64,000 nt of DNA from a virus: IMG/VR virus record IMGVR_UViG_3300045988_101835, one strand, 5' to 3'. Of this stretch, positions 2,321 to 49,397 are shown in pieces. The position numbers and the translations under genes were made by a program. Under the pieces are notes generated by a model. It worked only from the letters and a program-made list of their open reading frames with translations, was not told the origin of the DNA and did no database searches. Position 1 is the stretch's first letter. The number at the start of each line of letters is the position of its first letter.

Positions 2321-4282
2321 ATGACTTTAGATGCTGTTCGTGAGGTTTTCCGGAGTTACTTTTTGGAGGAGCTTAGGGTTGATCCGGGTTGGGATGAGTT
2401 CTTGGATCTCATCCTTTCGAACATGGACCTTCGTGCTCTGGACTTCATGCAGTCTAATGGGGTTCCTTATAGTATTGCTTTTAATGATTTTGGGGATCTG
2501 TTTAAGACGTCGGGTCCTTTCGTCGAGGTTCTACATGTTTCCGGTTCATCACGTTCTTCTGAGGGTTATACTTTGTTGGGCTTCAACATGCCGCTTCGGT
2601 ATAAGTTTCTATCGGAGTCGGGCCTGACTACGACAGACCTTCAGTGGTTTGACTTTACGGCTGCTTCTCTGATGTCGCGTCCTCAGTCTGTGAGCTATTA
2701 TACGAGTACAGATTTGGATGCCGCCCCTCAGTGGTTGCTTCGTCCGTCTTGCTATTACTATGTTCCCCAGACGGAGGAGGAGGCTGTGTCGCTGGATACG
2801 CTTCAGGGTCTTTCTGTTCTTGTCGATCCGGTTGTTCCTATTACATGGTCGGAGCGTGTTGACTTGTTTACGTATGCGGATGGTAAGCCTTGCTGCTTCT
2901 TTGTCAAGATATGGGATTATGTCCATGATGAATCCGGGGCTATTTTGCGCGATGCTGTGTCTGGGGAGTACTTCCCTACCATTCCTGCATTACAGCTCGC
3001 CACAGTGCCCGAAACGCTTAATGGTGCTGAGATTTTGAATGCCCGCCGACGGTCGGGTGCTGGGACTTCTCTGTATGGCACTTCTCCGTATGCGTCTGCT
3101 CTGTTTGGTGCTCTGTTTGGCTTGGGTTTGAACTACGCGGAGGTTCCGTTTCGTATTTACTTGGCGAGTGATGACCGTTTAGGTACTCCTACGGCGTCTT
3201 ATTCGTCGTTCGTTGAGTTCTGGCAGGTTCTGGATGCACTTCATGACTTCTTGCCGCGGTCTGTGTTTTTGAATCCGGAGGTTGTGGGTTTGGTTTCGGC
3301 GGAGGATACACGTGTTGATGCTGTTCGTGATTATTGGGGTACGGGTGATAGTATTGTTTCGTCTTTCTCCACTAAGGATCGTCTTCGTCGCATAGCTACT
3401 CGTTATGGTAGTATTCTTGGCTATGACAAGAAGCTTTGGGTTGTAGGGTCTAATGCTCCTTTCTCGGATTTGAACTTCTTGGGTCATGACGGGGGTGACG
3501 CTTCTGCGCCTTATATCAACACGCTGCCTACGGATATGTACTTTACGCAGTATGGTTCGTCGGCGTCGGCTCCGGGTGGGAGCGTTCGTGTTTTCTCGGA
3601 TGTTGCTGCATGGGAGGCATATGTTTACAACACTTCCGATCCTATTTACATTAGTCCGGTTACCATTAGGCTTGATTTGTCGTCATGGTCGGGTAAGCTT
3701 TTGGTTTCGCCTACCGATGGTTCTGGGGTTACGGATTACCTTGTTACTCCGGATTCTCGTCTTGGTGAGCCAGTTTACGGCATCACTAAGAACTATGTTG
3801 ACATGTCGATTCCGGATGGTTTTATCAACCGTTTAGTTCTGTCTTTTGGTGTTTCGGAGGATACTTTCATTGCTAGTCAGTTCGGCGGAGATAGTGCTGC
3901 TGCGTCCGCTTTTCTTTCTAGGCTTCAGTCTTTGCTTGAGGGTGCGGTTCCAGCCGGGGTTTCGGTTCAGGTTCTTTTTGGCACAGATGCCCATCCCGTT
4001 ACTCTCCGCTTTGCTATGGAGGTTGGTACTCCGGATTTCTTTATACGTGTTAGTCCTAGTGTTGTGACGAGTTCCGGCTCGGAGTCTTTCTCGTCTTCGG
4101 TTAGTGTTGAGTCCAATACTGCATGGCATGTGACGTCTCGCGTTGCGCCTTACATTCGTGTTGGTGCGAATGAGTATGAGACTTCGAGTTCTTACACTGT
4201 AGAGCTGGATCCTACGTCGGGGAGTCCTGCTTCGGTTTATGTTGCCACCAATTCGACGGTAGTAGTTAACGGTTCGGTTTAG
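2321..4282 (+). CDS. hypothetical virion protein with C-terminal BACON-like motif
   Basis: 653-aa ORF starting 6 nt after the upstream stop. The C-terminal 'SVESNTAWHVTS...VYVATN' resembles the Bacteroidetes BACON domain pattern (sNt.W.v.s). Confidence 0.6.
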   Translation: MTLDAVREVFRSYFLEELRVDPGWDEFLDLILSNMDLRALDFMQSNGVPYSIAFNDFGDLFKTSGPFVEVLHVSGSSRSSEGYTLLGFNMPLRYKFLSESGLTTTDLQWFDFTAASLMSRPQSVSYYTSTDLDAAPQWLLRPSCYYYVPQTEEEAVSLDTLQGLSVLVDPVVPITWSERVDLFTYADGKPCCFFVKIWDYVHDESGAILRDAVSGEYFPTIPALQLATVPETLNGAEILNARRRSGAGTSLYGTSPYASALFGALFGLGLNYAEVPFRIYLASDDRLGTPTASYSSFVEFWQVLDALHDFLPRSVFLNPEVVGLVSAEDTRVDAVRDYWGTGDSIVSSFSTKDRLRRIATRYGSILGYDKKLWVVGSNAPFSDLNFLGHDGGDASAPYINTLPTDMYFTQYGSSASAPGGSVRVFSDVAAWEAYVYNTSDPIYISPVTIRLDLSSWSGKLLVSPTDGSGVTDYLVTPDSRLGEPVYGITKNYVDMSIPDGFINRLVLSFGVSEDTFIASQFGGDSAAASAFLSRLQSLLEGAVPAGVSVQVLFGTDAHPVTLRFAMEVGTPDFFIRVSPSVVTSSGSESFSSSVSVESNTAWHVTSRVAPYIRVGANEYETSSSYTVELDPTSGSPASVYVATNSTVVVNGSV

Positions 4283-8671: not shown

Positions 8672-8703
8672 TTTGGATTTATAATTTTAATTATCTACTT
8701 TTG
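8672..8703 (+). promoter_or_regulatory. Bacteroides-type promoter (-33 TTTG / -7 TAnnTTTG)
   Basis: TTTG at 8672-8675, a 20-nt spacer, then TACTTTTG at 8696-8703. Preceded by a T-run, with an ATG 42 nt downstream. Confidence 0.6.
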
Positions 8704-9998: not shown

Positions 9999-10427
9999 TT
10001 GGCGAATGTAGATGTTTTGTGTAGGTATCATGCTCGCCCAGATCTTCTTAAGCTTGCATGCGTTGTATGTTTTGTTGCAAAAGTAGAGCGTGTTTGTTAT
10101 ACGTGCGATTTTGGTACGGGTGATGTGGATGACTGTATACGTTATACCTTTTATGTAGGTAATAAGCCCTTTTCAGTTTCTATGTACTTATTTAAGGAGT
10201 ATCATGATTTTTTAGTTAAAAATAATAGTTATGGAGAAGAGTGTGAAAATGCTTCTGGATTACAAGAATCAGAAGTTGCTGGACTCGTCCGAGGTGTCGG
10301 ATCGGGATGTTTGCGCTGCCGTGTCGAAGACCGACCTGAGCTTGCAGCAGTCTCTTTTGGAGACGTATGTGGAGTACTTAGATGCTCAGGAGCGTCTTCG
10401 CGTGTTAAAGTCGTCCTACCCTCTTGA
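9999..10427 (+). CDS. hypothetical protein; 3' end uncertain
   Basis: TTG-initiated ORF. The first ~230 nt have phage-like T-rich third positions. The last ~200 nt overlap ORF 10231-10581 and have atypical A-rich third positions. Confidence 0.35.
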   Translation: MANVDVLCRYHARPDLLKLACVVCFVAKVERVCYTCDFGTGDVDDCIRYTFYVGNKPFSVSMYLFKEYHDFLVKNNSYGEECENASGLQESEVAGLVRGVGSGCLRCRVEDRPELAAVSFGDVCGVLRCSGASSRVKVVLPS

Positions 10428-10581
10428 TCTTGAGGCTATCGCTACGGCGTCGGGAGACGTTTCGGAGCTGAAGGCGGGTATTGACTTGATCATGTCGCTT
10501 CGCAAGGAGTTCGGCTTCTCGGAGGTTGATCTGGAGTCCTTCGTTCGGTCATCTAAGACGCAGGATCGGGTCGAGGGTTAG
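10231..10581 (+). CDS. hypothetical coiled-coil-like protein
   Basis: 116-aa ORF. In the overlap zone with ORF 9999-10427 this frame carries the phage T/G third-position signature. Confidence 0.55.
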   Translation: MEKSVKMLLDYKNQKLLDSSEVSDRDVCAAVSKTDLSLQQSLLETYVEYLDAQERLRVLKSSYPLDLEAIATASGDVSELKAGIDLIMSLRKEFGFSEVDLESFVRSSKTQDRVEG

Positions 10582-10741
10582 TTTTCGCCATTGCGCTTGT
10601 AGGCTTCAGTCATATGTAACTTGGTAAAATCCGTATGCGATAAAATTAGCCATTCTAAAGTTAAGGGACAGGCTATCGGGTTGCTTGCATACTTACGAGT
10701 GCTTGCGCCGCGTCAACGACCAAGTAGGAGATGCGGTTTTT

Positions 10742-10827
10742 GCTCGGATGGTGAAATAGGTATACACGCCGGATTTAAGCTCCTGTGATCAGCAATGGTC
10801 GTGCGGGTTCGATTCCCGCTCCGAGTA
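10742..10827 (+). tRNA. tRNA-Leu (anticodon TAA)
   Basis: Hand-folded cloverleaf: acceptor GCTCGGA/TCCGAGT (G1:U72), D stem GTG/CAC, anticodon loop TTTAAGC, 17-nt variable arm, T arm GCGGG-TTCGATT-CCCGC, discriminator A. There is one C:U mismatch in the anticodon stem. Confidence 0.8.
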
Positions 10828-10847
10828 CTTTTTTTTTGCAACAAAGA

Positions 10848-10879
10848 TTTGCAACTTTAAATTAACTTTTTTATCTTTG
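10848..10879 (+). promoter_or_regulatory. Bacteroides-type promoter
   Basis: TTTG at 10848-10851, a 20-nt spacer, then TATCTTTG at 10872-10879. It directly follows the tRNA and a T9 run. Confidence 0.6.
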
Positions 10880-10903
10880 CATCAAGTAAATACTTGTGAT
10901 GGT

Positions 10904-11152
10904 ATGCTCAGAATGATTCATAGTTGGGTTAAGGTGCTTCGTGGCCTTCGTATTCGGGTCAGTGCGGGTTCTTTGCTCTTGCTCAGTTCAGCATCCCCTA
11001 TTGCTGTGGGGTCTCGAGTGTGGCATTCGGACTATGGTATCGGTGTGGTGCGTATTGTTGGGACGTGTGAGTATGTTGTTAGTTTCGAAGCTGGTTTTGA
11101 GAGTTCCACGTACAAGATGTATTGCTGCAGGGTTCTCTGTTCTTTGGGTTAA
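10904..11152 (+). CDS. small protein with Tudor/SH3-like 'HxxFGxGxV' segment
   Basis: 82-aa ORF from the first ATG. 'VWHSDYGIGVVRIV...YVVSFEAG' resembles the small beta-barrel found at UvrD/PcrA C-termini and in DUF3553-like proteins. Confidence 0.45.
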   Translation: MLRMIHSWVKVLRGLRIRVSAGSLLLLSSASPIAVGSRVWHSDYGIGVVRIVGTCEYVVSFEAGFESSTYKMYCCRVLCSLG

Positions 11153-11161
11153 TTTACATTT

Positions 11162-11245
11162 GCCGTCTTGTCGGAATTGGTAGACGAGAAGGTCTCAAAA
11201 ACCTTTGTCCTTTAGGACGTCCGGGTTCGATTCCCGGAGACGGTA
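11162..11245 (+). tRNA. tRNA-Leu (anticodon CAA)
   Basis: Acceptor GCCGTCT/AGACGGT (G1:U72), D arm TCG-GAATTGGTAGA-CGA, perfect anticodon stem AAGGT/ACCTT, loop CTCAAAA, long variable arm, T arm CCGGG-TTCGATT-CCCGG, discriminator A. It closely parallels the E. coli tRNA-Leu layout. Confidence 0.85.
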
Positions 11246-11273
11246 CGACTTCCCGACGTGGTTGCCGGGGGTC

Positions 11274-11304
11274 CCCAGCCTTGAAATGGTAGGTGCTGGG
11301 TTTT
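11274..11304 (+). terminator. weak hairpin plus T-run
   Basis: cccagc (11274-11279) pairs with gctggg (11295-11300) and is followed by tttt. Confidence 0.4.
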
Positions 11305-11789
11305 ATATTGTGCACATTCCGGTTTTAGCTTGGTTTATCCGTCCGGGTGTGGGTGCGTTGCTAGAGGAGTCTTTCCTACCGTAGGTTCCGTTTGCATAGC
11401 TGAATATCAGGCGTGGCGGCTTGGAGTAGCACGGCAACAGCTAAGTATGGGTTCTTTTGTTTTCGCTGCAGTTAACGGACATATGGTTAGTCCTTGCTGG
11501 GTTTCTTATAAAGGGATTTCTCAGGGGTAGTGCAGTGTTTAACGAAGTTTGTTTATGGGGCATTATCCGTTCGCCACTATGCTTTGGCTATAAGGATTCA
11601 TACTTTTTATACGTCTATGGTTTGTGTTCCTTGACATAGTGAAGACGGCACCGTCGAGAGTGATACTCTTTCGCTTTTAACCTTTGGAGCTCACTCATCT
11701 TTTTCTTCAGGCAATTCCTTGTGCATGTTCTGGATTTAGCCTGTCACTCTCACTTGTTAGTGGCGTGTGCTGTCTTCACCTTTTTTTTT
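11305..11789 (+). ncRNA. candidate structured non-coding RNA (family unknown)
   Basis: About 480 nt without a convincing ORF. The 3' part is closed by a 13-bp long-range helix, gtgaagacggcac (11639-11651) with gtgctgtcttcac (11767-11779), followed by T9. Confidence 0.35.
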
Positions 11790-11914
11790 CAGTGGGACCT
11801 GCCTGAAAGTAGAGTAGGGTGTATGTGAATCAGGGGTTCGATTCCTTATACCGACTAAGTTCGTCGCTGGTTGGTGCTGGTTTGCAATATAGTGCCTTCG
11901 GGGTCCTTCTTGTT

Positions 11915-12002
11915 GGAGAGTTGGCGGAGTTGGTCTAACGCGCCTGCCTACTAATCAGGTGTCCGGGTTTCCGGGCCGGGAGTTCGAATCTCTCACTCTC
12001 CG
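11915..12002 (+). tRNA. type-II tRNA, Ser-like, anticodon ACT (A34)
   Basis: Perfect acceptor GGAGAGT/ACTCTCC, D stem GCG/CGC, anticodon stem CCTGC/TCAGG (C31:U39 mismatch), loop CTACTAA, 18-nt variable arm with a 5-bp stem, T arm GGGAG-TTCGAAT-CTCTC, discriminator G. Confidence 0.75.
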
Positions 12003-12271
12003 CGCCGAGTTGTTTCCGGTTGTGCTCTGAATTTAACTGGCGTCGTTCCCGAACGTATCGGGGGATGGTTGAGGTGATACCATCAGAAATCACCTGCGGG
12101 CAGACGCGTATTTGTAGGAGTTGACTTGCGTCTATATCAGCAGGCTGCGGTTAAGATGTATGAGTTCACCGCTACGGTTGACTGTATTAAAACTCTATTC
12201 ATCGGTGCTTGTTAAGCGCGCAATGACAGGCATGACGTCCCTATCTGCAGTGGCGTGCGTAGGGCTTTTTA

Positions 12272-12356
12272 GGAAAGTTGGCAGAGTGGTCGATTGCGCT
12301 GGTCTAGAAAACCAGTGATCCTTTAGGATTCGGGAGTTCGAATCTCTCACTTTCCG
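12272..12356 (+). tRNA. type-II tRNA, Ser-like, anticodon AGA (A34)
   Basis: Perfect acceptor GGAAAGT/ACTTTCC, D stem GCA/TGC, perfect anticodon stem CTGGT/ACCAG, loop CTAGAAA, 16-nt variable arm, T arm GGGAG-TTCGAAT-CTCTC, discriminator G. Confidence 0.8.
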
Positions 12357-13044
12357 CCGCCCCTCCGGTTGTTAGACCTAATTGGAAGTCGACTAAGATT
12401 AGGTTGAGGCAACAGTTGTCTCACTTGCGTTTGCTTAAGTGTGGCAATGAGAGGGTCCCATAGAGGGGTATACTCTTAAGATGTCGATGTAGGCTCTTGT
12501 GATGACGTCGGCAATCCTACGTAGATGCTTAGGAGAGGATACCGGATGGATTCGGTTCCGCCTTTCGGAGGTTGCAAACGATGATTGGTATGGGCTGATG
12601 TATTCCGAGGTTCGAGTCCTCCCTCTATACAATTTAAGCTTGGTTCTTTTTTACATGGAGGGTTTCCTGCATTTTCTAGGCTGGCCCGAAGCCTACTTCG
12701 AAGAAACCACCGACGCGCAAGGTGAGGGGCTACGGAGGATAGTAGACGGGGTGAAATTCCGCCGTCGAAGCCGATGGAACCGGATGCAGATACGGATAAG
12801 GCGTGCGTTCCTTTTGCGAGGTTCGGCGTTTCTGCTACGCTCGTATTCGAGTACGGTACCTTCGAGGTACCGTTTCTTGCCATCCCCTTTTTGGCTGGTT
12901 AGGGTGAAGATCAGTCCGGTGCTGGTACGAGAAGTCAGCAGCAGCCCGTGACGGCTATATTGTTGCGGCGCGGTGAAGCTGTCCGATGTGGGAAATTCGG
13001 AGATCAGCGGGATGTCCTATTCTAGATGTGGGTGTCTGACATTA
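12357..13044 (+). ncRNA. candidate large structured non-coding RNA (family unknown)
   Basis: About 690 nt with only mutually overlapping low-complexity ORFs on both strands. Dense local helices include 12467-12480/12528-12543, 12745-12749/12762-12766 and 12853-12861/12865-12873. A tRNA-like T arm sits at 12606-12622. The tract ends at a strong terminator. Confidence 0.4.
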
Positions 13045-13070
13045 GACGGGTGATTCCCGTCTTTTTTTTT
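13045..13070 (+). terminator. rho-independent terminator
   Basis: gacggg-tgatt-cccgtc followed by T9. Confidence 0.75.
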
Positions 13071-13079
13071 ATGCATTTA

Positions 13080-13111
13080 TTTGGAGTTTTAATTTAACTT
13101 TTCTATATTTG
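13080..13111 (+). promoter_or_regulatory. Bacteroides-type promoter
   Basis: TTTG at 13080-13083, a 20-nt spacer, then TATATTTG at 13104-13111. Confidence 0.6.
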
Positions 13112-13140
13112 TGTGGTGCTACTTTAATCGGTGATTTACT

Positions 13141-13575
13141 ATGGTGTACGAGGATATGGTTGACTTGATGCGGACCTTCGATTCCAACGCTGTGGACGTT
13201 CCTCAGCTTGGCATCTTCTGGTTCTTGCCGGAGTCGGGTTCTTTGTTTGAGGTCCATACGGAGGACTTTGACAGTTCTAAGGTGGTCAATGGTCATTTGT
13301 CTTATGGCAAGCTTCACAAGAATTGGTGGACTAAGGCTCGCATGTCTCGGTCGAAGGGTTCCAACCCTATTTACCAGACTGATTATACTATGATTCCTCG
13401 AGGTAGGGTTTCGTTCGACGATGGCAGGTTTGTGGTGTATGTCGGAAGTTGGTATGCCCCTTATGAGTCTCTGCTTCGTGATCTTATTGTGGATGAGTTC
13501 AACATCCCGTATGATTTCGAGTTCTGTGTTAAGGAGCACTGGGATATCGGTCATGGTTTCAATGAATTGCTGTAG
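13141..13575 (+). CDS. hypothetical early protein
   Basis: 144-aa ORF 30 nt downstream of a host-type promoter. Confidence 0.6.
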   Translation: MVYEDMVDLMRTFDSNAVDVPQLGIFWFLPESGSLFEVHTEDFDSSKVVNGHLSYGKLHKNWWTKARMSRSKGSNPIYQTDYTMIPRGRVSFDDGRFVVYVGSWYAPYESLLRDLIVDEFNIPYDFEFCVKEHWDIGHGFNELL

Positions 13576-21823: not shown

Positions 21824-23815
21824 ATGTTGTGGGGCACTTTTAATGGGTACAAGGTTGGCTTGGTTCAGAGTCTGTCGGATTTGGATTACATCCGGGCAGA
21901 TTTGCATGCCAATATAGTGGCTGGTTTGGATTCGGAGACGACGAGCTTATCTTTTGTTCACGGTCGAGTGGTAGGGGTATGTATCGCTACGGGTAAGACT
22001 TACAGCAAGGATGACTACTGTGGTTATTACATTCCGATTCGTCATGTGGGCTATCACGCCAATCTTCCGGTTGACCTTGTTATTGCTTTCGTGCAGTATG
22101 TCGTCGATAATTATATGACGATGTGGTGGAACCGGAGTTTCGACTTTTCTATGTTGGAGCTTGACGGGTTCAAGGCACCTTTTGTTGGTAAGACTCATGA
22201 CGTCCAGTTCATGGCGCATGAGATTTTCAATGAGCGTTATCCTAAGCTGAAGGTCTTTGCTAAGCGTCTTTTTGGGTTTAAGACTATCGACTTCGAGGAT
22301 AATAATGCGGTTAATGGTAACTTCGGCTCACTCGACCCGGAGGTCTCTTTCATCTATGCTGCTGCCGACCCTCTCATCACGACACTGTGTGGTCTCCGTA
22401 TTTGGAGTGACTATCCTCATATTCGTCAAATTTACCCGCTGGATAACGAGTCCGGTGAGGCTGTTCGTCGCTTGGCTAAGGCGGATATCCTTCTTGATTA
22501 TGATTTCTTGGATCAGGAGGTCATTCGCACTTCTGCCCGCATGGAGGATGTCCGGCAGCGTATCTATCAGCTTGTGGGCTACGTTTTCAACATCAGTAGT
22601 GAGGATGACAAGGCGGATGCCTTGAGCCGCTTTGTCACGTTGACGGTCCGTACTAAGAGTGGCAAGTTCAAGACGGATAAGAATGTCTTGGCGACGATAG
22701 ATCATCCGTTAGCTAAGCTTATGCTGGAGTATAATGCCTTGAGCACTTACTTGAAGTCTTTCGTTTCCAAGATGGTTTCGTGGCGTCATCGTCAGATTCC
22801 GGTTCATATTAATTATAACCTTGTCGTGGCGTTGACGGGTCGTATGAGTAGCTCCGGGTCGGAGGGTAATGACTTCTACGTTCCTTTTAATGGCCAGAAC
22901 TGTGTTCGTGGTTCTAATACTACAGTTTTCACTCGTTCCGGGTCCAAGTTGATTTCGGAGGTTGTTGTTGGTGACGAGGTTTGGGATGGCGATGCTTTTC
23001 GGCGCGTGTCTGCGGTTTTGGATCAGGGTGTGCGTGAGATTTACCGTTTGACTTTGGAGGATGGTCGTTTCTTGGACGCGACATCAGATCACCCGGTTCT
23101 CACGGCTTCGGGGTTCCACGAGGTTTCTACGTTACTCGGGGTCGATGTTTTGGTGAGTGAGAACCCTCATGTTTTCCTGACTGGTGTAGATTGTGGTCCC
23201 GCTAGGTACTTATGTAGGGTTGTGTCGATCCACCCTATTGGCTATGATCGTGTTTATGACATTACGGTCGATGTATCAGAGCGTTTTGTGGCCAACGGTA
23301 TTATAGTTCATAATTGCCCGAAGGTTTCTTTGAAGATGTATTTGCATACAGATCCTCTTATAGGCTACTGTTTGAAGCATGAGGCGGAGGGTGCTGTGTG
23401 TGATGAGTCGGGCAAGCCTATTAAGTATAAGACGAAGGGAGGACTTCGTGATGCCTTCTTGGCCAACCCGCCGGGGGAGGATGACTGGGTAATGGTTGGC
23501 AACGATTATTGTATTCATCCGGATACATTAGTATCGACACCTTCGGGAGATGTTCGAATAGGTGATATGGTTGGTTGTGAGTTCGAGGTTTCTACGCCTT
23601 ATGGTCCTTGCGTTGCTTCTAATGTTCACCATACTGGTCGTCGCAAGCAGTATCGTATAGAGTTGTCGGACGGTGCGGTTCTGGTTTGCTCTCCAGATCA
23701 TCGTTTGTGGGTGTGTCGTGATGACGTAGATATGTGGGTTAAGGCTTCTGAGCTTTTGAGTAGTGATTATATTTACACTCAGTCTGATGTTACTTATCCG
23801 GAGATTGTGAGCTAG
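21824..23815 (+). CDS. family-A DNA polymerase, N-terminal part (3'-5' exonuclease through motif A) with one complete and one half intein
   Basis: Exo I 'GLDSETTSL'. 'TGRMSSS...NGQN' corresponds to Pol I TGRLSS..NLQN. 'GNDY' is the start of motif A (DYSQIELR). The ORF ends inside an intein N-domain. Confidence 0.85.
   Translation: MLWGTFNGYKVGLVQSLSDLDYIRADLHANIVAGLDSETTSLSFVHGRVVGVCIATGKTYSKDDYCGYYIPIRHVGYHANLPVDLVIAFVQYVVDNYMTMWWNRSFDFSMLELDGFKAPFVGKTHDVQFMAHEIFNERYPKLKVFAKRLFGFKTIDFEDNNAVNGNFGSLDPEVSFIYAAADPLITTLCGLRIWSDYPHIRQIYPLDNESGEAVRRLAKADILLDYDFLDQEVIRTSARMEDVRQRIYQLVGYVFNISSEDDKADALSRFVTLTVRTKSGKFKTDKNVLATIDHPLAKLMLEYNALSTYLKSFVSKMVSWRHRQIPVHINYNLVVALTGRMSSSGSEGNDFYVPFNGQNCVRGSNTTVFTRSGSKLISEVVVGDEVWDGDAFRRVSAVLDQGVREIYRLTLEDGRFLDATSDHPVLTASGFHEVSTLLGVDVLVSENPHVFLTGVDCGPARYLCRVVSIHPIGYDRVYDITVDVSERFVANGIIVHNCPKVSLKMYLHTDPLIGYCLKHEAEGAVCDESGKPIKYKTKGGLRDAFLANPPGEDDWVMVGNDYCIHPDTLVSTPSGDVRIGDMVGCEFEVSTPYGPCVASNVHHTGRRKQYRIELSDGAVLVCSPDHRLWVCRDDVDMWVKASELLSSDYIYTQSDVTYPEIVS
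22901..23314 (+). other. mini-intein 1 (138 aa) inserted after the Pol I ...QN motif
   Basis: Cys1 'CVRGSNTTVF', block B 'LDATSDHPVLT', blocks F/G 'VYDITVDVSERFVANGIIVHN', followed by +1 Cys. No endonuclease domain. Confidence 0.8.
23510..23812 (+). other. split-intein N-fragment (101 aa) at PolA motif A
   Basis: 'DY|CIHPDTLVSTPSGDVRIGDM' (block A) and 'LVCSPDHRLWV' (block B). The ORF stops with TAG at 23813. Confidence 0.7.
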
Positions 23816-27571: not shown

Positions 27572-28750
27572 ATGAAGAAGACATTCAAATATCGCATCTA
27601 CCCGAACAAAGCCCAGCAGGCTTTGTTACAGGCGACGTTTGGATGCTGCCGCTTCGTTTACAACAAAACGCTTGATATTAGGAAGACGGCTTACGAGACC
27701 GACAAGATGAAGCTTAGTAAGTTCGATTGCATCAATCGGATGACTGCGTTGAAGGATGAGTATACGTGGTTGCGTGCCGTTCCTGCGGTTTGCTTGGTTC
27801 AGGCTGTTGACAACATGGATACAGCCTACCAAAACTTCTTCAAATCTGGTAAAGGTTATCCGAAGTTTAAGTCGAAGCATCGTAGCCGTAAGTCCTGTAA
27901 GTTTATGGTGCCTAAGTGTGTTGTATTGCAAGATATTAGTCGTTTAAAGCTTTCTAAGTTAGGGTTAGTCAAGTACAAGAAAGACCGGGAGTTCGTTGGC
28001 GCTTTGCGTCACATTGTGGTTACACAAGAAAACGATGGTAAGTACTACGCGTCGTGCTTGGTGGAGACGGGCGTTGAAGCACCTAAGCCAAAGCCCGTTG
28101 ATGATAGCACAACGGTCGGCATTGACTTGGGGCTGAAAGACTTTATCGTCACGTCCGACGGGCGCAAGATACCTAACCCGCGCTTTTATGCTACTATTGA
28201 CCGACGCATAGCTAGGTTACAGAAGCATGAAGCACGAAAGACGAAAGGCTCGAAGCGTCGTGCCCGCATTCGCTTAAAGATTAACAAACTTTATATCAAG
28301 AAGCAAAACTTAATTAAGAATTATATTTACCATGCCGTCAAGACGTTACTGCGTGAGAGTCAAACGATAGTAATGGAGAATCTTAATGTTGGCGGCATGG
28401 TTAAGAATCATAGTTTAGCTAAATCCATACAGAACATTTGCTGGGGTGAACTTCGCAGAGTGTTAGAGTATAAGTCTCAATGGCTTGGTCATAACCTTAT
28501 TTTCATAGATCGTTGGGCACCGAGTACGAAGACTTGTAGTTGTTGCGGCTTTAAGAATGATATATTAACACTTTCAGATCGTTCGTGGACATGTCCGGGT
28601 TGTGGTACGCATCACGACAGAGATGTTAACGCTGCCCTCAACATTAAGCGTATGGGTTTAGAAAAGTTATTGCCTACGGTGAGTGGGTTCGACGGACGTG
28701 GAGAGATCGGTTACGATCTCGACGAAGCGTCAATATGTGCAAGTTATTAA
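27572..28750 (+). CDS. tnpB: TnpB (OrfB) RNA-guided nuclease family protein
   Basis: N-terminal 'YRIYPNKAQQALLQATFGCCRFVYN', RuvC-I 'GIDLGLKDF', RuvC-II 'VMENLN', zinc finger 'CSCCG...CPGCG', RuvC-III 'HHDRDVNAALNI'. Confidence 0.9.
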   Translation: MKKTFKYRIYPNKAQQALLQATFGCCRFVYNKTLDIRKTAYETDKMKLSKFDCINRMTALKDEYTWLRAVPAVCLVQAVDNMDTAYQNFFKSGKGYPKFKSKHRSRKSCKFMVPKCVVLQDISRLKLSKLGLVKYKKDREFVGALRHIVVTQENDGKYYASCLVETGVEAPKPKPVDDSTTVGIDLGLKDFIVTSDGRKIPNPRFYATIDRRIARLQKHEARKTKGSKRRARIRLKINKLYIKKQNLIKNYIYHAVKTLLRESQTIVMENLNVGGMVKNHSLAKSIQNICWGELRRVLEYKSQWLGHNLIFIDRWAPSTKTCSCCGFKNDILTLSDRSWTCPGCGTHHDRDVNAALNIKRMGLEKLLPTVSGFDGRGEIGYDLDEASICASY

Positions 28751-37806: not shown

Positions 37807-39062
37807 GGTAATTATTTACTTTTTCATTTTCATTTGCAATAAATGTAAAATAATTGTAACTTGCAGTCGTGAAGAAGGCATTTAAATATCGCATTTATCC
37901 GAACAAGGCCCAGCAGGCTTTGTTGCAGGCGACGTTTGGGTGCTGTCGCTTCGTGTATAATAAAACGCTAGACATCAGGAAGACGACGTATGAGAGGGAT
38001 AAGACGCAGCTTAGCAAGTTTGACTTAACCAAGAAGATACCGCTGCTTAAAGAAGAGTTTCCGTGGTTGCGCGACGTTCCGGCGGTATGCTTGCCGCAAG
38101 CAGTCGGCGATATGGATGATGCCTATCAGAAGTTCTTTAAGTCCGGTAATGGTTATCCTAAGTTTAAGACGAAGCATCGCAGCCGTAAGTCTTGTCGTTT
38201 TCCGGGCCAGAGTTGTGCGGTATTGCAAGACATTAGTCGTTTAAAGTTTCATAAGTTAGGCTTAGTCAAGTATAAGAAGGATCGTGAGTTCGTCGGTACT
38301 TTACGTCACATTGTGGTTACACAGGAAAGTGACGGTAAGTACTACGCTTCGTGTGTAGTAGAGACGGGTGTCGAAGCACCTAAGCCACAATCCGCAGAAG
38401 CTAGTACGACGGTCGGTATTGACTTAGGACTCAAAGACTTTATCGTTACGTCGGACGGACGCAAGATAGCTAACCCGCGGTTCTACGCTACTATTGACCG
38501 TCGTATAGCTCGGTTGCAGAAGCACGAAGTTAGAAAGACGAAAGGGTCTAAGCGTCGTGCACGCATCCGATTGAAAATTAACAAACTTTATGTTAAGAAA
38601 CGCAACTTAATCAAAAATTATATTTACCATGTTGCCAAGACGTTACTGCGTGAAAGCCAAACGTTAGTAATGGAAAATCTCAATATTGTCGGCATGGTTA
38701 AGAATCATAGTTTAGCTAAATCCATCCAGAATATTTGTTGGGGTGAACTGCGTAGAGTGTTGGAGTACAAGTCTCAATGGCTTGGCCACAATCTCATCCT
38801 CATAGATCGTTGGGCACCGAGTACGAAGACTTGTAGTTGTTGCGGTTTCCACAATTCTATGTTGACGCTTTCAGATCGTTCGTGGGTTTGTCCGGGTTGC
38901 GGTACGCATCACGACAGAGACGTCAATGCTGCGATTAATATTAAGCGTATGGGTTTAGAGTCATTATTGCCTGCGGTGGGCGGGTTTGACGGACGTGGAG
39001 AGGTTGGTTACAACTTCGACGAGGCGTCAATATGTACAGTGTAGAAATTGTATGCATTCACC
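37807..39062 (+). mobile_element. TnpB-only insertion element, copy 2
   Basis: Left end ggtaattatttac... and right end ...aattgtatgcattcacc. Its ends are more decayed than those of copies 1 and 3. Confidence 0.75.
37869..39044 (+). CDS. tnpB: TnpB family protein (GTG start)
   Basis: Full set of motifs as in copy 1: GIDLGLKDF, VMENLN, CSCCG...CPGCG, HHDRDVNAAINI. The start codon is GTG where the other copies have ATG. Confidence 0.85.
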   Translation: MKKAFKYRIYPNKAQQALLQATFGCCRFVYNKTLDIRKTTYERDKTQLSKFDLTKKIPLLKEEFPWLRDVPAVCLPQAVGDMDDAYQKFFKSGNGYPKFKTKHRSRKSCRFPGQSCAVLQDISRLKFHKLGLVKYKKDREFVGTLRHIVVTQESDGKYYASCVVETGVEAPKPQSAEASTTVGIDLGLKDFIVTSDGRKIANPRFYATIDRRIARLQKHEVRKTKGSKRRARIRLKINKLYVKKRNLIKNYIYHVAKTLLRESQTLVMENLNIVGMVKNHSLAKSIQNICWGELRRVLEYKSQWLGHNLILIDRWAPSTKTCSCCGFHNSMLTLSDRSWVCPGCGTHHDRDVNAAINIKRMGLESLLPAVGGFDGRGEVGYNFDEASICTV

Positions 39063-48139: not shown

Positions 48140-49397
48140 GGTGATTATATGCAACTTTATATCATCGTTTGCAGTAAATGTAAAATAATTGTAATTTTCA
48201 GACATGAAGAAAGCATTCAAATATCGCATCTACCCGAACAAGGCTCAGCGGGCTTTGTTTCAGGCGACGTTTGGATGTTGCCGTTTCGTTTACAACAAAA
48301 CGCTTGATATCAGAAAGACAGCTTATGCGATGGATAAGACGCAGCTTAGCGAGTTTGATCTCATCAAGAAAATAAAGCCGCTTAAAGAAGAGTTCCCGTG
48401 GCTGCGTGACGTTCCAGCGGTTTGCTTACCTCAAGCAGTTGGTGATATGAATGATGCTTTCCGTGATTTCTTTAAGTCGGGTAAGGGTTACCCTAAGTTC
48501 AAGACGAAGCATCGTAGTCGGAAGTCTTGTCGTTTTCCCGGCCAGAGTTGTGCAGTGTTGCAAGACATTAGTCGCTTAAAGCTTCCCAAGCTTGGTTTAG
48601 TTAAGTACAAGAAAGATCGTGAGTTCATTGGCACTTTACGGCATATAGTGATTACGCAAGAAAGTAATGGCAAGTATTATGCTTCGTGCTTGGTTGATAC
48701 GGGCGTCGAAGCACCGAATCCGAAGCCAGTAGAAGCTAGTACGACGGTCGGCATTGACTTGGGGCTTAAAGACTTTATCGTCACGTCGGATGGGTGTAAG
48801 ATGCCCAATCCACGTTTTTATGTTACTATCGACCACTCCATCGCCCGCTTGCAGAAGCACGAAGCGCGGAAGATGAAAGGATCGAAGCGTCGTGCGCGCA
48901 TTCGGTTAAAGATTAACAAACTTTACAGTAAGAAACGGAATTTAATCAAGAATTATATTTATCATGTCGTCAAGACATTACTGCGCGAAAGCCAAACGCT
49001 AGTAATGGAGAACCTTAACATTGTTGGCATGGTAAAGAATCATAGTTTAGCTAAATCCATCCAGAATGTTTGCTGGGGTGAGCTTCGCAGAGTACTGGAG
49101 TACAAGTCGCAGTGGTTGGGTCACAACTTAATCTTCATAGATAGGTGGGCGCCTAGTACGAAGACTTGCAGCCATTGCGGGTTCCATAATTCTACGTTAA
49201 CGCTTTCAGATCGTTCATGGACATGTCCGGGGTGTGGTACACATCACGACCGGGACATCAACGCCGCGATTAACATTAAACGTATGGGTTTAGAGACATT
49301 ACTGCCCGCGGTGAGCGGGTTCGACGGGCGTGGAGAGGTCGGTTACGGTCTCGACGAAGCGTCAATATGTGCAAGTTATTAACTGCATGTAATCACC
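48140..49397 (+). mobile_element. TnpB-only insertion element, copy 3
   Basis: Ends ggtgattatatgcaact and aactgcatgtaatcacc are 14/17 inverted repeats. The element is flanked on both sides by tcccaa (48134-48139 and 49398-49403). Confidence 0.8.
48204..49382 (+). CDS. tnpB: TnpB family protein
   Basis: GIDLGLKDF, VMENLN, CSHCG...CPGCG, HHDRDINAAINI. Confidence 0.9.
   Translation: MKKAFKYRIYPNKAQRALFQATFGCCRFVYNKTLDIRKTAYAMDKTQLSEFDLIKKIKPLKEEFPWLRDVPAVCLPQAVGDMNDAFRDFFKSGKGYPKFKTKHRSRKSCRFPGQSCAVLQDISRLKLPKLGLVKYKKDREFIGTLRHIVITQESNGKYYASCLVDTGVEAPNPKPVEASTTVGIDLGLKDFIVTSDGCKMPNPRFYVTIDHSIARLQKHEARKMKGSKRRARIRLKINKLYSKKRNLIKNYIYHVVKTLLRESQTLVMENLNIVGMVKNHSLAKSIQNVCWGELRRVLEYKSQWLGHNLIFIDRWAPSTKTCSHCGFHNSTLTLSDRSWTCPGCGTHHDRDINAAINIKRMGLETLLPAVSGFDGRGEVGYGLDEASICASY

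Follow-up and report, generated by a model that had tools for sequence, protein, structure and literature searches.

The tRNA cluster of phage T4 co-encodes stable small non-coding RNAs of unknown function (species 1 and 2, or RNA C and D), presumably freed by tRNA-processing enzymes. Here we describe a tract of about 0.7 kb at positions 12357-13070 of the IMG/VR virus record IMGVR_UViG_3300045988_101835, directly downstream of the last tRNA gene of a phage tRNA island. The window, by which we mean the whole 64,000-nucleotide stretch that was analysed, is a phage genome fragment with all its long open reading frames (ORFs) on the plus strand. The plasticity of the T4 tRNA region and its homing endonuclease have been described (PMC2330249). 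Two further RNAs, GOLLD and ROOL, occur in phage and prophage DNA, often near tRNA islands (PMC12286853), and a preliminary description of the tract had proposed a large structured RNA in the same type of setting. We find that 12359-13070 is probably an untranslated trailer at the 3′ end of a phage tRNA operon, built as a chain of separable RNA modules and not as one large RNA. In order, the modules are a three-way junction of ~95 nt, a segment of ~170 nt that resembles a tRNA-gene remnant (T-arm, acceptor-like closure, enlarged inner arms), a lineage-specific part of ~400 nt with a very conserved unstructured block and several hairpins, and an intrinsic terminator (Table 1).

By analogy, the likeness to the T4 stable RNAs would lie in small non-coding RNAs that share a transcription unit with phage tRNAs. 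It is a likeness by description, and the window modules are lineage-specific, variably present and known from sequence alone. With GOLLD and ROOL the tract shares its genomic setting. It matches neither model and is not one conserved fold, whereas GOLLD has a conserved 3′ domain and a length above ~600 nt and ROOL a multi-pseudoknot fold of ~580 nt. The search proposed in the preliminary description, cmscan against the GOLLD, ROOL, HEARO, tmRNA and group I/II intron models, gave no match at the gathering threshold nor at E ≤ 10 with permissive filters (10400-13300 and 12357-13075). Rfam searches (gathering; E ≤ 10) of the window, the tract, a structured element upstream of it and two sister-clade loci returned only tRNAs and sub-threshold noise (leuA-Halobacteria, 23 bits; tRNA-Sec, 20 bits).

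The preliminary description had placed the tract between tRNA-Ser(AGA) and a strong terminator at 13045-13070, and both boundaries were confirmed, the tRNA ending at 12358 and the terminator covering 13044-13070. The three helices it named are also present: 12467-12480/12528-12543 with bulges, GACGG/CCGTC at 12745-12749/12762-12766, and a perfect 9-bp hairpin at 12853-12861/12865-12873. For the tract as a whole the label helix-dense does not go beyond chance. The minimum free energy (MFE) was −253.3 kcal/mol, where dinucleotide shuffles gave −242.9 ± 7.6 (z = −1.38). Among 20 shuffles 2 folded equally well, and the minus strand gave z = −0.78. Long-range pairs predicted by RNAalifold between 12456-12459 and 13009-13012 are without support because they never vary.

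From GenBank, IMG/VR, ENA and Logan we collected 15 distinct tract copies with 89-99% identity; related loci are cited below by L numbers. The sole blastn match in the GenBank phage collection was MT839121, an unannotated 4.5-kb fragment of the same phage, and a 17-mer scan of IMG/VR gave mostly chance matches. RNAalifold energies were compared per segment with those of column-shuffled alignments, giving z values of −2.7 for 12359-12458, −3.65 for 12459-12635, +0.5 for 12636-12850 and −2.7 for 12840-13043. The structure signal at the alignment level is local and not tract-wide. Over the whole tract, within a single narrow clade, 10 of the 227 predicted pairs showed double changes compared with 1-3 when pairing partners were slid, and about two of the ten came from a misaligned row; this compensatory signal is weak to moderate.

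The same genomes differ by whole modules. Two of them (L003/L004) lack exactly 12358-12458. At 12650, L003/L004, L023 and L033/L034 carry ~200 extra nucleotides (L003 5312-5511) flanked by the short direct repeat TTT(T/AC)ATGG, and since this repeat bounds the block, the window lineage probably lost it. A further 324 low-GC nucleotides are present at 12739 in L043/L044 (their 961-1285). The tract is a set of separable modules with presence/absence polymorphism, and because near-identical genomes lack or gain entire modules, these are probably accessory and not essential. Indels running freely through the proposed helices, which the preliminary description had named as counter-evidence, were in part observed, in the form of whole modules gained or lost among genomes that are 89-99% identical. 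More distant phages were reached via the flanking 144-aa protein (54-59% identity). They keep the gene order and carry more tRNAs (Leu, Leu, Met, 'Phe', Ser(UGA), Ser(ACU) and Asp). For 12480-13043 no similarity was detected in these syntenic sister clades by blastn or nhmmer.

There is solid evidence that the first module, which we call the Y module, is an RNA structure under selection. It begins 3 nt past tRNA-Ser(AGA), and its single-sequence fold gave z = −2.57. In L050 and L054, two genomes of a sister clade, homologs directly follow tRNA-Ser(UGA). In an alignment of six distinct sequences 97.7% of the positions in 37 predicted pairs were paired, against 38-46% with slid partners, and 9 of the 37 pairs were compensatory, against 0-1 in the slid controls. 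Within the tract, an excess of compensatory changes across lineages was found for 12361-12455 only. Many G-U pairs in the helices assign the module to the plus strand. Its site is orthologous in every genome that has it, between tRNA-Ser and CAUAGAG, and no Rfam family was matched. Of the conserved RNA structure expected from the preliminary description, this module is borne out by covariation and the hairpin at 12853-12873 by a change from A-U to G-C; the expectation fails for 12636-12850.

The next segment reads as a tRNA-derived element and looks like the remains of a tRNA gene, either a relic or a working mimic. The single-sequence MFE structure of 12455-12635 is a cloverleaf-like four-way junction with a 7-bp acceptor-like stem, two long arms and a canonical T-arm. 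As in a tRNA, the T-arm (GAGG-UUCGAGU-CCUC, 12607-12621) is followed by a 7-nt strand complementary to 12460-12466; over 16-19 nt it is identical to the T-arm of a sister-clade tRNA-Met. The T-loop motif GGTTCRANYCC was found only in two annotated tRNAs (both tRNA-Leu), at 11835-11845 and in this segment. The consensus fold of 12459-12635, 3.65 standard deviations stabler than column shuffles, is strand-specific, since the other strand gave −0.7. A complete cloverleaf, with a 7-nt anticodon loop and at least 29 bits for RF00005 or 47 bits for tRNA-Sec, was not found. The best match in the tRNA clan (CL00001) by Infernal was tRNA-Sec with 20.2 bits (E = 0.27) against a gathering threshold of 47, and this alignment covered the D-arm, the T-arm and part of the acceptor, leaving the anticodon and variable arms unmatched.

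Many tRNA-like candidates have been described in IMG/VR phages (Fremin & Bhatt 2023, csRNAs; PMC10690425). With tRNA pseudogenes and viral tRNA-like structures the segment shares the canonical UUCGAGU T-loop, the adjacent acceptor-like stem and the position in a tRNA array. Unlike these it has no anticodon arm, and two inner arms of ~60-75 nt replace the D and anticodon arms. It also differs from tRNA pseudogenes in that its Infernal score is far below threshold and that ARAGORN called it only under relaxed settings and with a poor acceptor. That call, a 'tRNA-Cys with intron' at 12518-12630 made with the threshold lowered to 90%, has a mismatched acceptor and is no real tRNA. An acceptor stem and T-arm without an anticodon are also found in the tRNA-like domain of tmRNA, but the segment has no tag reading frame, pseudoknots or encoded CCA, and measures 170 nt compared with ~360 nt. 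No tmRNA was detected by default ARAGORN or Rfam, and relaxed ARAGORN gave only a spurious permuted tmRNA-type call at 10736-11475 spanning real tRNAs.

The distal part of the tract shows a mixture of conservation and local pairing. Pairwise diversity was lowest in 12359-12471 and 12672-12751 (0.01-0.02, similar to tRNA) and highest in 12792-12951 (0.06-0.12). No structural signal was obtained for 12636-12850, which contains the most conserved block. In the hairpins beyond this block compensatory changes occur at 12803/12827 (G-C/A-U), 12858/12868 (A-U/G-C) and 12900/12909 (U-G/G-C), and the pairing of the 12853-12873 hairpin survives its A-U to G-C double change in most relatives.

The region 12359-13043 is non-coding. 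The only long ORFs are the two on opposite strands that had already been pointed out, 12476-12883 on the minus strand and 12499-12951 on the plus strand (150 aa). The reported lack of the phage's third-position T/G signature proved correct as well: the G+T content at third positions was 0.76 ± 0.04 across 22 real genes of the window, compared with 0.56 and 0.39 in the two long ORFs and 0.58-0.59 in each of the three plus-strand frames of the tract. A translated search, the result of which could have overturned the RNA proposal, compared the 150-aa ORF with 5.8 billion proteins and recovered seven clusters, all derived by translating this very locus from close relatives of the phage. When aligned, they show an invariant core with flanks that switch reading frame, as expected of nucleotide and not of protein conservation. 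The sole conserved ATG (12655) is directly followed by TAG in L023 and L033, and the ~200-nt insertion breaks the ORF in several genomes. PHROGs gave no match for either tract ORF (Pfam was run on the neighbouring genes). A conserved frame, genome-typical codon bias and a protein family match are all absent from the tract.

The tract sits between the promoter motif at 10848 and the terminator, as judged from the positions of these motifs. Five near-identical copies of a ~32-nt motif (consensus TTTGGAnTTTTAATTTAACTTTTCTATCTTTG) occur in the window, at 8672, 10848, 13080, 28782 and 44125, and the underlying promoter pattern has 7 matches in the window against 2.7 expected. We infer that the five copies are promoters which mark phage transcription units, as they fit the Bacteroidota −33/−7 consensus. 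The 13080 copy begins ten bases past the terminator, which is invariant among all relatives and has the sequence features of an intrinsic (rho-independent) terminator, so far as prediction goes. The host probably belongs to the Bacteroidales, because of the promoter type, a contig with the same locus (L060) from a metagenome-assembled genome labelled Muribaculaceae, and the named sources of flanking-protein homologs.

In the mechanism that we propose the modules would be co-transcribed with the tRNAs. The tRNA genes do not encode CCA and have CCG after the discriminator. Since CCA is not encoded, endonucleolytic excision of the tRNAs is expected; host enzymes would cut at the 5′ ends (RNase P) and after the discriminator (an RNase Z/E-type activity). 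The Y module, the tRNA-like segment and the tail with its terminator would thereby come free as individual small RNAs, which the hairpins and the terminator would shield from 3′ exonucleases. The freed modules would be analogous to the stable RNAs of the T4 tRNA cluster. Co-transcription, processing, stability and any trans-acting role are our interpretation of this arrangement.

Several observations weigh against an operon trailer made of RNA modules. Co-transcription is deduced from promoter and terminator motifs only, and a long hairpin followed by T9 at 11639-11791 could stop transcripts upstream of both tRNA-Ser genes; if termination occurs there, the tRNA-Ser part needs a promoter that was not recognised. 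In the tRNA-like fold the acceptor pairing never varies and gets no covariation support, the acceptor 5′ strand can alternatively form the cross-clade conserved hairpin 12463-12477, so that the two pairings compete, and in L003 the T-loop is changed to UUCGCAU. The z of −2.7 for 12840-13043 was the same on both strands, and because of this the fold may have a DNA-level or chance origin. All tract sequences beyond the first module come from one narrow clade, which limits the statistical power. An unlikely explanation, though one to be taken seriously, is that the tract is functionless debris, consisting of decayed tRNA genes and the scars of recombination and deletion in a hyper-plastic island, with hairpins that arose by chance or by hitch-hiking. 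Indel polymorphism, mosaic recombination, the sub-threshold tRNA relic, TnpB insertions in the island of relatives, the restriction of most of the tract to one clade and the insignificant single-sequence fold energy would all fit such decay. It leaves unexplained the nine compensatory pairs of the Y module across clades, the compensatory changes in three further hairpins and the block at 12672-12751 that is as conserved as tRNA itself. Moreover, the tract diverged from L003, L038 and L039 by 5-9% compared with 14-17% at 4-fold sites of the adjacent gene (13141-13575), a comparison that is only rough because the genomes are mosaic, and L035 goes the opposite way with a tract more diverged than its neighbouring genes. 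In three comparisons the tract thus diverged about half as fast as the neighbouring 4-fold sites, and this, taken with the compensatory changes, speaks against its being junk alone.

Another reading is that the modules are non-autonomous IS200/IS605-type elements (PATE/MITE-like) or TnpB omega-RNA remnants, with hairpins that act as DNA. The window has three TnpB genes, relatives have TnpB inside the tRNA island, and the Y module combines precise presence/absence with two hairpins. We regard this as very improbable, as the tract occurs just once in the window and does not resemble the three TnpB elements, their ends or their flanks, the Y module always occupies the same orthologous site, and the many G-U pairs in its helices allow pairing only on the transcribed strand. 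A single large ornate RNA of the GOLLD/ROOL type, folded as one unit, would account for the many local helices and for the position next to phage tRNAs, where GOLLD and ROOL are often found (PMC12286853). Such an RNA is strongly disfavoured and hardly to be expected, given zero Rfam matches even at E ≤ 10, a whole-tract MFE at the level of shuffles, 12636-12850 without structural signal, entire modules lost or gained between near-identical genomes, 12480-13043 without a homolog in syntenic sister clades, and predicted long-range pairs that are invariant. Scarcely credible, finally, is a small protein encoded from ATG 12655 or by the 150-aa ORF. Gene callers do report that ORF in public assemblies, but its third-position G+T of 0.56 departs from the genome value, frame-shifting indels separate its homologs, TAG directly follows the ATG in L023/L033, the 200-nt insertion cuts it in several genomes, and no PHROG matched. 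The trailer of separable RNA modules remains the reading that we consider probable. A bolder extension of it, which we hold to be quite improbable, is that this group of gut phages has a toolkit of tRNA-linked structured RNAs (the upstream 375-nt RNA described below, the Y module, the tRNA mimic and element X of the sister clades) that are freed by host tRNA processing and act in trans. If so, they could counter host defences that target tRNA, as decoys or as inhibitors, or could modulate translation, and the tract would contain two such effectors rather than spacer RNA.

Table 1. Positions of the features of the tRNA island and of element X in related loci (element X in the coordinates of each locus)
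Feature	Position	Strand	Basis and remarks
tRNA-Leu(UAA)	from 10742		ARAGORN and Rfam
Promoter motif, Bacteroidota-type TTTG..N20..TAnnTTTG	10848-10879	+	Pattern match; likely start of the tRNA operon transcript
tRNA-Leu(CAA)	from 11162		ARAGORN and Rfam
Two-domain structured RNA	11247-11620	+	Directly 3′ of tRNA-Leu(CAA), ~1 kb upstream of the tract
5′ domain of this RNA	11259-11443
3′ domain of this RNA	11444-11604		Closed by a 13-bp helix, then a U-run
tRNA-Ser(ACU)	11915-12003		ARAGORN and Rfam
tRNA-Ser(AGA)	12272-12358	+	ARAGORN and Rfam, 54.5 bits; final canonical tRNA of the island
Y module, three-way junction of ~95 nt	12361-12455	+	Outer stem 12361-12366/12450-12455, hairpin 1 12368-12413, hairpin 2 12415-12448
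tRNA-derived or tRNA-like segment, ~170 nt	12460-12630	+	Acceptor-like stem 12460-12466/12622-12628, hairpin 12467-12543, second arm 12544-12606, T-arm 12607-12621
Small hairpin AGAG/CUCU	12463-12477	+	Conserved across clades; 4 pairs, 1 compensatory, 100% paired
Most conserved block of the tract	12660-12790	+	Pairwise diversity 0.01-0.03; no significant predicted structure, no conserved reading frame
Clade-specific local hairpins	12800-12830, 12853-12873, 12893-12916, 12944-12971, 12978-13008	+
Intrinsic terminator, AGACGGG-tgatt-CCCGTCT then T9	13044-13070	+	Terminator scan; 7-bp stem with 5 G-C pairs, 5-nt loop
Promoter motif of the next gene (144-aa protein, 13141-13575)	13080-13111	+	Pattern match; kept in distant clades too
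Element X in L050	11614-12045	-
Element X in L045	1927-2355	-
Element X in L024	100-533
Element X in L046	4350-4755
Element X in L026	4398-4596

The actual large structured RNA of the island, and a stronger candidate than the tract, is the two-domain RNA at 11247-11620, so that the proposal of a large structured RNA co-encoded with phage tRNAs holds for the island although not for 12357-13070. An alignment of 17 distinct sequences from three phage clades was used. Conservation of the RNA extends to every one of these clades, including those whose flanking protein shares only ~54% identity, and coding is ruled out because 1-nt indels separate the conserved blocks. RNAalifold predicted 77 pairs in 14 helices, arranged in two domains; 97.8% of the cells pair, against 39-48% with slid partners, 26 pairs are compensatory against 1-3, and the covariation score is 0.405 against 0.04-0.07. 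The RNA is single-copy in each genome and had no Rfam match in any clade. It is conserved and structured but, at ~375 nt, matches neither the GOLLD nor the ROOL model. A two-block search pattern also gave chance loci (L053, L059), and looser patterns added no true homologs by nhmmer. The RNA may or may not be among the more than 10,000 unnamed candidates of PMC10690425.

The ORF-poor zone extends beyond the tract: 10582-13141 is nearly free of coding sequence and contains four tRNAs according to ARAGORN and Rfam. The sole exception is a 91-aa ORF (10877-11152) between the two tRNA-Leu genes and directly past the promoter motif. It is conserved in relatives, where change at its third codon position (0.085) exceeds that at positions 1 and 2 (0.024 and 0.049), and for this reason the tRNA island probably contains a genuine gene here. 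In both tRNA-Ser genes the anticodon (ACU and AGA) starts with A, the wobble position, which is unusual among bacterial-type tRNAs and fits the preference of the phage for T-ending codons; in the sister clades UGA replaces AGA. At 11639-11791 lies a very long imperfect hairpin (GUGAAGACGGCACCGUCGAGAGUGA ... UCACUCUCAC..GUCUUCAC) followed by T9. The folded stretch that includes it (11636-11866) has an MFE z of −3.19, and in several relatives the hairpin is broken by a TnpB element. It might serve as an internal terminator and so divide the island between two transcription units. Similarity of 11630-11870 to the tRNA-like module, as a possible paralog, was unconvincing.

In the sister clades the slot after tRNA-Ser(UGA) and before tRNA-Ser(ACU) is taken by another conserved non-coding element of ~420 nt, element X, which has its own terminator. 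Its 3′ ~215 nt are highly conserved and end in the terminator; the element is not present in the window. Derivation of the tract by divergence from the upstream 375-nt RNA or from element X was also considered, and nhmmer found neither relationship. A replication origin or packaging site in the tract was considered as well; there are no iterons or repeats and no skew change. In L026 two tRNA-like elements (3312-3414 and 3680-3786) were not called by ARAGORN. One of them combines an acceptor stem and a D-arm with an encoded CCA and scores 24.8 bits with RF00005, below gathering; in the other, a T-arm accompanies a 7-bp acceptor stem. The 'tRNA-Phe' called by ARAGORN in the same locus (3891-3963) has no Rfam support. 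The contig ends of L002 and L023 fall at a hypervariable spot and look like assembly breaks.

The three TnpB (IS605 OrfB/Cas12f-like) genes of the window, at 27572-28750, 37869-39044 and 48204-49382, are ~80% identical. Further copies lie inside the tRNA island of relatives (L004 1398-2659, L023 1293-2468 on the minus strand, L036 75-1253, L038 711-1889). The L004 copy is located just 5′ of tRNA-Leu(UAA), for which ARAGORN gives an abnormal 4-base anticodon (taag). Elsewhere in the window a family A DNA polymerase ORF (21824-23815) contains an intein splicing domain (Pfam PF14890).

Non-coding RNAs whose function is unknown have repeatedly come to light in phage tRNA islands, among them the T4 stable RNAs, GOLLD and ROOL. 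The tract described here is itself of modest interest and adds no new giant RNA. The 'spacers' of this island form a patchwork of RNA modules that can be exchanged. The Y module and the 375-nt RNA are well supported as new members of a loosely defined class of tRNA-island phage RNAs, with clear covariation and no Rfam family, and they are targets for transcriptomics and for the building of covariance models. The locus warns against labelling a tract of this kind as junk, and equally against calling it a single large RNA.

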